Shown here in pieces: positions 19,460-19,801 of a stretch of 24,516 bases of DNA (positions within the stretch are counted from its first letter, which is position 1; the number at the start of each line of letters is the position of its first letter). The position numbers and the translations under genes are program-made. The notes under the pieces are model-generated. The model did not search any database, was not told where the DNA came from, and saw only the letters and a list, made by a program, of their open reading frames with translations. The stretch is from a virus (lineage: Duplodnaviria > Heunggongvirae > Uroviricota > Caudoviricetes), in IMG/VR virus record IMGVR_UViG_2609460332_000001. One strand, 5' to 3'.

Positions 19460-19464
19460 AACAT

Positions 19465-19562
19465 AAAAAAATCCCGCAGTGATCGCGGAGCTGCGGGGAC
19501 AGACAAATGAAGATCAATGTTAAGGAGTTGTTTTTGTTACTCGGGCAAAAAAACACTAACGC
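19465..19562 (-). ncRNA. candidate small RNA (about 100 nt) on the minus strand in the I-J intergenic insertion
   Basis: Minus-strand sigma70-like promoter (-35 TTCACA at 19596-19591, 16-bp spacer, -10 TATAAT at 19574-19569), then a GC-rich hairpin (19497-19473, CCCGCAG/CTGCGGG) followed by U7 (19471-19465); no plausible ORF inside. Confidence 0.3.
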
Positions 19563-19667
19563 AGCGAAATTATAAGCGCCACAGTCAGTGTGTGAAAATG
19601 TGAAGATATTCAGAATTTTTATGCCATTACCGGTTTTAACCAACAGGATTATCGGTGGGCATGAAAG

Positions 19668-19704
19668 AAAACCCCGGTATCTGCTGATACCGGGGTTTCT
19701 CTTT
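19668..19704. terminator. strong palindromic hairpin, possible bidirectional terminator
   Basis: AACCCCGGTATC / GATACCGGGGTT perfect 12-bp stem with 4-nt loop TGCT, flanked by an A-tract 5' and T-rich sequence 3'. Confidence 0.4.
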
Positions 19705-19801
19705 AGCATGGCAGAAATGTGTTTCATGCTTTTCGGGCGAAGGATATCCGACTTCTGTACGGAATGGCAAGTGGCGGTTAATTTATTCAGGGGAAGGCTG
19801 T

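Follow-up and report, generated by a model that had tools for sequence, protein, structure and literature searches.

The spacer that separates tail genes I and J of this tailed phage is best explained, in its left half, as a moron that encodes the small RNA PasB, an Hfq-dependent and trans-acting sRNA. We put the probability of this reading at about 85%. The sRNA in the spacer is already known, as PasB and as the related EcOnc22, EcOnc23 and EcOnc24, and is not a new discovery. PasB (pathogenicity-associated sRNA B) was described in prophage PP6 of the EPEC strain O127:H6 E2348/69 (Pearl Mizrahi et al. 2021, PMC8550237), where it occupies NC_011601.1 1466343..1466261 on the minus strand, has a length of 83 nt and was detected with the Northern probe AATCCCGCAGTGATCGCGGAGCT (Table S6, PMC8550237). 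In the window, by which we mean the whole analysed stretch of 24,516 nucleotides, this probe matches positions 19470-19492 in 23 of 23 letters, and between 19440 and 19615 a single base separates the window from the E2348/69 locus, the rest being identical. When the published coordinates were transferred to the window through an alignment with locus L257, mature PasB mapped to 19465..19547 on the minus strand (83 nt, UGCCCGAGUAACAAAAACAACUCCUUAACAUUGAUCUUCAUUUGUCUGUCCCCGCAGCUCCGCGAUCACUGCGGGAUUUUUUU). The window RNA is identical to E2348/69 PasB in 82 of 83 positions. The one difference lies at position 27 (A for C), which is where a recent preprint places the polymorphism between PasB and PasB-2 (Zhu, Shabalina and Storz 2026, 10.64898/2026.05.13.724894).

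The original prediction, made from the letters of the window, was that of a minus-strand small RNA that ends in a terminator and carries no ORF. This is borne out, the locus being that of the published PasB and homologous to EcOnc22/23/24, and the comparison with known prophage sRNAs that had been proposed leads to PasB by way of the probe match. The predicted size of ~100 nt did not hold, since the published RNA has 83 nt and its 5′ end lies at 19547 and not at ~19562. Covariance models were silent: no Rfam family reached its gathering score anywhere in the window, and between 19300 and 19950 only sub-threshold chance matches with E values up to 10 were obtained; PasB has no Rfam family. Two further identities were considered and rejected. 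EcOnc54 is not a second copy of the element but part of another moron in Sp6, located between the tail genes L and K, and PreS of lambda is encoded between ea10 and ral.

Gene I stops at 19459 and gene J starts at 19802, leaving 342 bp between them. The GC content of this spacer is 43.6%, compared with 60.2% in I and 58.7% in J, and that of the sRNA module is 40.4%, compared with ~59-60% in its flanks. In lambda the I-J spacer measures 60 bp and is devoid of the sRNA module. The earlier description of an AT-rich insertion that lambda lacks is therefore correct on both counts. With a promoter and a terminator of its own, a deviant GC content and the short lambda spacer as reference, the insertion corresponds to a moron in the sense of Juhala et al. 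(2000). A 128-codon minus-strand ORF formally crosses the spacer; in relatives it is broken by indels, and none of the three ORFs compared with Pfam, this one included, has a match. The left half of the spacer would thus be a self-contained moron, an independently transcribed PasB gene placed antisense between two tail genes that are almost adjacent in lambda. Its location at this junction is strictly conserved. The right half (19622-19801) exists as one allele, which is at least 99% identical in 1442 records.

Our allele collection comprised 120 IMG/VR loci with the terminator pattern, 6 diverged E. coli loci that BLAST returned, and the loci of Sakai and EPEC, which together gave 142 modules and 57 unique alleles. 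A scan of genome contigs with the same terminator pattern returned at least 120 unrelated terminators from many phyla and holds no taxonomic information on the sRNA. Read in the sense of the RNA, from 5′ to 3′, the modules consist of a dyad TCTGA-N6-TCACA, 20 hypervariable nucleotides, the hexamer NATAAT and a conserved block GCGTTA...T; these are followed by a T-run of variable length, a variable A-rich tract, a further conserved block, a variable linker, the terminator stem and the U-tail. The Rho-independent terminator (19465..19497, minus strand), which is likely the module that meets the proximal face of Hfq, has the stem CCCGCAG/CUGCGGG (19497-19491 and 19479-19473), an 11-nt loop, and an A plus seven U running to 19465, beside the stop codon of I. 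Both the scan and the folding support it, as does its presence in the 57 alleles, so that the predicted intrinsic terminator with a 7-bp GC stem and seven U stands as described. Stem and seven-U tail are invariant among the 57 alleles and the loop varies from 9 to 16 nt; canonical sRNAs have at least six U in this place. RNAalifold, run on the same alleles, predicted the terminator alone, with zero covariation because the stem is invariant and the loop variable. Upstream of it, predicted 5′ hairpins are inconsistent between alleles and the body of the RNA is weakly structured, and folding against shuffled sequences gave no extra structure (z -0.8 to -0.9).

The conserved block of the RNA body has the consensus AACUCC(U/A)UAAC.UU(A/G)AUCUUCAU. 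In the window its counterpart AACUCCUUAACAUUGAUCUUCAU (19507..19529, minus strand) is a candidate seed, being the most conserved part of the body across the 57 alleles and unpaired in the centroid fold. No seed for PasB is reported in the 2026 preprint. In the Sp15 allele of the Sakai strain the block holds a 10-nt match to yjbJ that is seen in CLASH chimeras. The base by which the window differs from E2348/69, at position 27, falls inside the candidate seed. Next to it lies the A-rich tract AGUAACAAAAACAAC (19527..19541, minus strand), a candidate motif for the distal face of Hfq with five consecutive A-R-N triplets. The number of triplets ranges from two to seven in the other alleles; the sequence of the tract changes from allele to allele and its A-richness is kept. 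A-R-N motifs binding the distal face of Hfq have been described for prophage sRNAs (Tree et al., PMC4104026).

The published data on Hfq and RIL-seq come from the E2348/69 allele, which differs from the window allele by one base. There, PasB was reported on a Northern blot (PMC8550237), and its stability requires Hfq: the log2 fold change in an hfq deletion was -6.8 (adjusted p 2e-40) under activating and -2.4 under non-activating conditions (PMC8550237). Its 37 RIL-seq partners comprise 30 CDS or 5′UTR, 4 3′UTR or IGR and 0 sRNA, and PasB is the second RNA of the chimeric fragments in fractions of 1.0 and 0.987 (Table S5, PMC8550237). The second place in RIL-seq chimeras is the signature of sRNAs that are held on Hfq by their 3′ end. 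Because PasB stands second in the chimeras, has mRNA partners and has no sRNA among them, it appears to be an ordinary trans-acting Hfq sRNA that works on mRNAs of the core genome. As judged from the sequence of the RNA, the U-tail and the terminator would contact the proximal face of Hfq and the A-R-N tract could contact its distal face; the unpaired conserved block AACUCCUUAACAUUGAUCUUCAU would probably serve as the seed by which the RNA pairs imperfectly with host mRNAs. Since the alleles differ in the conserved block and in the A-rich tract, alleles of the EcOnc22/23/24 type probably have partly different sets of targets.

The same RIL-seq data bear on a possible second role in cis, in which the RNA would pair with the late I-J mRNA and lower the expression of J or act against a superinfecting relative. 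All 83 nt of the RNA can pair with the late transcript without a mismatch, PasB is expressed in lysogens, the I-J position is strictly conserved, and there is a precedent in STnc6030 of prophage BTP1 with its tailspike gene. However, partners from the accessory genome account for less than 2% of PasB chimeric fragments (PMC8550237), and the RNA overlaps neither a CDS nor the ribosome-binding site of J, whose start lies 255 nt beyond the 5′ end of the RNA. The RIL-seq figure is a weak test of a role in cis because the lysogens were uninduced and late mRNA was scarce. We regard such a role, in addition to the one in trans, as unlikely.

It had also been suggested that a CA-rich stretch on the minus strand, AACAAAAACAAC, could pair with the seed of a core sRNA. 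On such a reading the RNA would mimic GcvB targets and sequester GcvB or another core sRNA in the manner of AgvB. The stretch exists and is rich in C and A, as GcvB targets are; anti-sRNAs of prophages have precedent, and the layout of the PasB family, in which the 5′ part varies and the 3′ part is conserved, resembles that of the AgvB/AsxR group. The pairing itself found no support. No sRNA occurs among the 37 RIL-seq partners of PasB, and the one sRNA partner counted for GcvB (Table S5) agrees with the gcvB::sroC pairs of Table S3. The duplex between the RNA body and GcvB was predicted at -26.5 kcal/mol, no better than the mean of -28.1 kcal/mol for dinucleotide shuffles. With region R1 of GcvB alone PasB reached -15.4 with large loops, whereas AgvB reached -22.3 with near-continuous pairing. 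Moreover, the CA-rich tract is not kept between alleles, the Sp15 allele having GAAAAAUAAC in its place, and in local alignment the homology of PasB to AgvB/AsxR is confined to the terminator tail, with no Rfam hit. A sponge or anti-sRNA function is accordingly most improbable. AgvB was also rejected as the identity of the element, as it sits at the PR′ site and its sequence is unrelated.

A type I toxin-antitoxin pair had been the other suggestion, with a 22-codon plus-strand ORF (19507..19575, ATG at 19507, TAA at 19575) as the toxin whose translation the antisense RNA would block. This ORF is present and overlaps the sRNA completely; a GGGGA motif precedes its ATG by 7 nt, and it is annotated as a hypothetical protein in one phage record. 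Across alleles it is poorly maintained. Of 56 unique stretches with both terminator and dyad, 17 lack the ATG; about 6 of these represent another sequence context, and the others are true alleles (among them the L007, L119/L125, L126 and L129 types, with ACG or a deletion). In alleles that retain the ATG, variation in the length of the A-run yields products of 10 to more than 36 aa in various frames. The 22-codon peptide is hydrophilic, with a GRAVY of 0.08, five charged residues and no membrane-spanning stretch, it has no Pfam hit, and the promoter scan gave no plus-strand promoter for it. As many alleles have lost the start codon or the frame of the ORF, a toxin is unlikely; we judge the ORF non-functional and give the toxin-antitoxin pair next to no credence.

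For PasB itself, the start of transcription is less obvious than the end. The promoter of the original prediction, here P1 (19569..19596, minus strand), is present, with the -35 element TTCACA (19596-19591), a 16-bp spacer and the -10 element TATAAT (19574-19569), and it scores 11 of 12 against the sigma-70 consensus; in 1.7 kb we found 3 promoter-like sites, compared with 0.8 expected. Its use is uncertain. P1 predicts a 98-nt RNA that starts at ~19562, in disagreement with the published 5′ end of PasB at 19547, which lies 15 nt downstream of the predicted start and was taken from RNA-seq coverage and not from 5′ RACE, so that it may be a processing site. With published 5′ ends 15-16 nt downstream, P1 may not be the promoter that is used. 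The conservation of the predicted elements is likewise divided: the terminator stem is kept in all 57 alleles and the -10 of P1 survives as NATAAT in most of them, but the -35 region is hypervariable. An alternative is P2, a -10-like hexamer TAGTGT at 19553..19558 on the minus strand, which precedes the mapped 5′ end by 7 nt. At this position TANNNT is found in 57 of 57 unique alleles, in nine different hexamers, and in CLASH every read of the Sp15 allele starts with the G equivalent to 19547, which fits P2. The start would most likely be at 19546/19547, from a weak promoter with TAGTGT and a poor -35. P1, which lies 16 bp upstream of P2, may give rise to an additional, longer precursor in the window allele; as NATAAT is also conserved, a second start or 5′ processing is possible.

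Upstream of both elements lies a CRP-like dyad, AAATGTGA-AGATAT-TCAGAATT, at 19596..19617 (core 19599-19614; AAATGTGAAGATATTCAGAATT in the window), to which no strand is assigned. It resembles the consensus TGTGA-N6-TCACA, with 2 mismatches to the 16-position CRP consensus, and is the only site of the window within 3 mismatches (0.08 expected). The dyad is kept in 141 of 142 modules, with invariant half-sites and a variable N6; only Sp10 lacks it, a sodC moron having replaced the promoter there. The distance from the centre of the dyad to TANNNT, which lies downstream, is 48.5 bp in 54 of 57 alleles. In the lac promoter the centre of the CRP site is 49.5 bp from the -10. Measured from the published 5′ end, be it primary or processed, the centre is at about -60.5, compared with -61.5 for a canonical class I site. 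Relative to P1 it is 32.5 bp from TATAAT, that is at -44.5, which fits neither CRP class; a class II geometry for P1 was rejected, the distance being 29.5 bp in cyaR.

A further hint comes from expression. The sRNA CyaR is activated by CRP, and Spot 42 is repressed by it. PasB fragments in RIL-seq were 7x commoner in the non-activating than in the activating condition (1820 vs 258; PMC8550237), two conditions that differ in more than glucose. CyaR fragments are likewise commoner in the non-activating condition, and Spot 42 behaves in the opposite way. The invariance of the dyad and its fixed spacing from an invariant TANNNT suggest catabolite control. A regulator bound about 60.5 bp upstream would assist the weak promoter, and if this regulator were CRP, the expression of PasB would be tied to carbon status. 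Hence it might be possible that PasB is transcribed under the control of CRP, although we would put this at somewhat worse than even odds.

EcOnc22, EcOnc23 and EcOnc24 were found in the O157:H7 Sakai prophages Sp15, Sp14 and Sp11, respectively (Tree et al. 2014, PMC4104026), with an Hfq-CRAC peak and a Northern band of ~85 nt that was destabilised without hfq (PMC4104026). In our spacer alignment the I-J spacer of Sp15 shows 74% mean column identity to that of the window, and by blastn the 151-bp module is ~79% identical. The published EcOnc22/23/24 probe equals the tail-sense strand of the Sp15 spacer, so the RNA that it detects is antisense to the tail genes. CLASH chimeras agree with this strand: they contain the Sp15-allele sequence GCCTGAAAAATAACTCCATAACGTTAATCTTCA (Waters et al., PMC5286369), which we located on the RNA-sense strand of the Sp15 spacer, and they also carry GCCUGAAAAAUAACUCCAUAACGUUAAUCUUCA. 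The Sp15 allele forms low-count chimeras with yjbJ and ECs5349. No connection between PasB and EcOnc22 was met in the texts consulted: Table S6 leaves the note field of PasB empty, and the 2026 preprint contains 'EcOnc' 0 times. We tentatively propose that PasB and EcOnc22/23/24 are alleles of one family of sRNAs at the I-J junction whose transcription is driven by CRP-cAMP from a promoter of class I type; taken as a whole, this proposal is more probably wrong than right.

The element is common. Of 5426 complete E. coli genomes, 1808 carry it, with as many as 10 copies in a single genome, and among phage records it is confined to Escherichia and Stx phages. PasB has been reported only in Escherichia and Shigella and is often the sole Pas sRNA of extraintestinal strains (2026 preprint). 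ST131 and O157 are among the carriers of the sRNA.

The right half of the spacer contains a second hairpin (19664..19703), for which a perfect 12-bp stem had been given; the stem has 13 bp (19669-19681 and 19686-19698, loop TGCT), and the terminator-like, U-rich tails on both strands were seen correctly. Its predicted energy is -30.8 kcal/mol on the plus and -28.7 kcal/mol on the minus strand, with z of about -6.2 on both. As a bidirectional, terminator-like element it sits between the sRNA promoter and J. Relatives and lambda have different hairpins with a plus-strand U-tail at the same place, so a terminator-like hairpin upstream of J is seemingly a general feature of these late operons. The 13-bp hairpin could shield the putative sRNA promoter from antisense transcription coming out of J.

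As a discovery the PasB locus matters little, having been found by RIL-seq in 2021, in a relative by Hfq-CRAC in 2014 and having had its distribution described in the preprint of 2026. The value of the present analysis lies elsewhere. Two sRNAs with separate names, PasB of EPEC and EcOnc22/23/24 of EHEC, are tied into one family, the toxin and GcvB-sponge readings are in effect ruled out, and the mature 5′ end is placed 15 nt from the obvious promoter. The strictly conserved CRP-like operator offers a handle on when a common prophage sRNA is made, one that is present in roughly one in three complete E. coli genomes. If the proposal is true, the prophage plugs an allele-specific set of host mRNAs into the catabolite-repression circuit of the host. 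In the literature consulted we did not find the link between PasB and EcOnc, the mismatch between promoter and mapped 5′ end, the invariant CRP-like dyad with its fixed spacing or the insertion point shared with sodC at the I-J junction.

Among known systems, PasB of E2348/69 is the closest. Its locus likewise lies antisense between the gene for tail assembly protein I and gpJ, in keeping with the report that PasB is embedded in a structural-gene operon (preprint 10.64898/2026.05.13.724894); its promoter region and terminator are identical to those of the window, and both the window allele and PasB occur widely among extraintestinal E. coli. The two differ in the right-hand half of the spacer, where E2348/69 has the shorter common allele and the window the allele with the 13-bp hairpin. 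EcOnc22/23/24 share with the window the position, the strand, the invariant terminator stem, the dyad, the -10-like elements and the conserved block, and they are Hfq-bound and Hfq-stabilised. They differ in the A-rich tract, which is shorter (GAAAAAUAAC in the Sp15 allele), in several changes of the candidate seed (CCAUAACGUUAAUC vs CCUUAACAUUGAUC), in a -10 that reads AATAAT and in the missing -35 of P1.

CyaR, an Hfq-dependent sRNA of the core genome, has a similar upstream dyad (AATTCTTAGAAACCGATCACAT vs AATTCTGAATATCTTCACATTT) and is, like PasB, more abundant in the non-activating condition. However, its CRP site is centred at -42.5 (class II), whereas the PasB dyad is at about -60.5 from the mapped 5′ end. 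AgvB and AsxR (RF02702, RF02703) are, like PasB, short, prophage-encoded and Hfq-binding, antisense to the late operon and equipped with 5′ A-R-N motifs. In contrast to PasB, with its 83 nt at the I-J junction, they have 51-60 nt and lie at the PR′ moron site; they share a 42-nt 3′ region that is missing from PasB, and their targets are sRNAs, which PasB lacks among its partners. The sodC moron of Sakai Sp10, finally, is protein-coding and in this respect different from the sRNA module, but it has the same insertion point and the same antisense orientation. Its arrival removed the sRNA promoter and the dyad and left the sRNA body and the terminator in place. In occupying the same point, this moron shows the I-J junction to tolerate independently transcribed cargo.

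Directly upstream of tail gene J, a strong hairpin followed by a U-rich tail on the plus strand was found in the window (19664-19703), in most relatives (for instance L001:1215-1275, one of the collected comparison loci) and in lambda (L253:165-195), and these hairpins are unrelated to each other in sequence. The hairpin before J is a terminator-like element of conserved position within the late operon. Two long, mechanically called open reading frames span the spacer between tail genes I and J, one of 128 aa on the minus strand (window 19440-19826) and one of 77 aa on the plus strand (19588-19821), and both extend through hairpins. 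A Pfam match was found for neither of them; part of the 77-aa frame is annotated as 'hypothetical protein' in one phage record.

Some prophages bear two successive sRNA modules (dyad, promoter region, RNA body and terminator) of different alleles (L024:4417-4802 and L055:8173-8560; also L104, L108, L113 and L128). These tandem modules are separated by 70-700 nt, in some cases with extra DNA in between. The same I-J junction is occupied in Sakai Sp10 by sodC (ECs_1989), which lies on the minus strand (L255:5484-6336). Here the sRNA body and terminator are retained and adjoin the I stop. Other DNA has taken the place of the promoter and dyad, and the break falls at the RNA's conserved 5' block. 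Read-through from sodC would be the only possible source of an sRNA transcript in Sp10. A further rearrangement at the I-J junction is seen in Sakai Sp6 (L254:97-1501): the I gene is cut down to 186 bp, and next to it, in place of the sRNA module and J, come a small hypothetical ORF and then the effector-like espX7. EcOnc54 (Tree et al., PMC4104026) maps to a different tail-region moron of Sakai Sp6, located between tail genes L and K (L132:254-1909), whose cargo includes a transcriptional regulator as well as an antirepressor gene.

In CLASH chimeras (PMC5286369), supported by 1-2 reads only, the Sp15-allele sRNA is joined to yjbJ (Sakai, L131:678-720) towards the 3' end of its coding sequence, with a perfect 10-nt match of CCAUAACGUU with AACGUUAUGG; the window allele differs from the Sp15 allele in this stretch. 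Alleles also vary in the T-run between the -10-like hexamer TAGTGT and the mapped 5' end of the RNA (window 19547-19553), which comprises ~6 to 9 bases. Such differences in length would shift either the spacing between -10 and start or the 5' end of the RNA itself. When the CRP site of cyaR in E. coli K-12 (L258:82-103), AATTCTTAGAAACCGATCACAT, is compared with the CRP-like dyad upstream of PasB, AATTCTGAATATCTTCACATTT, the likeness extends past the consensus positions.
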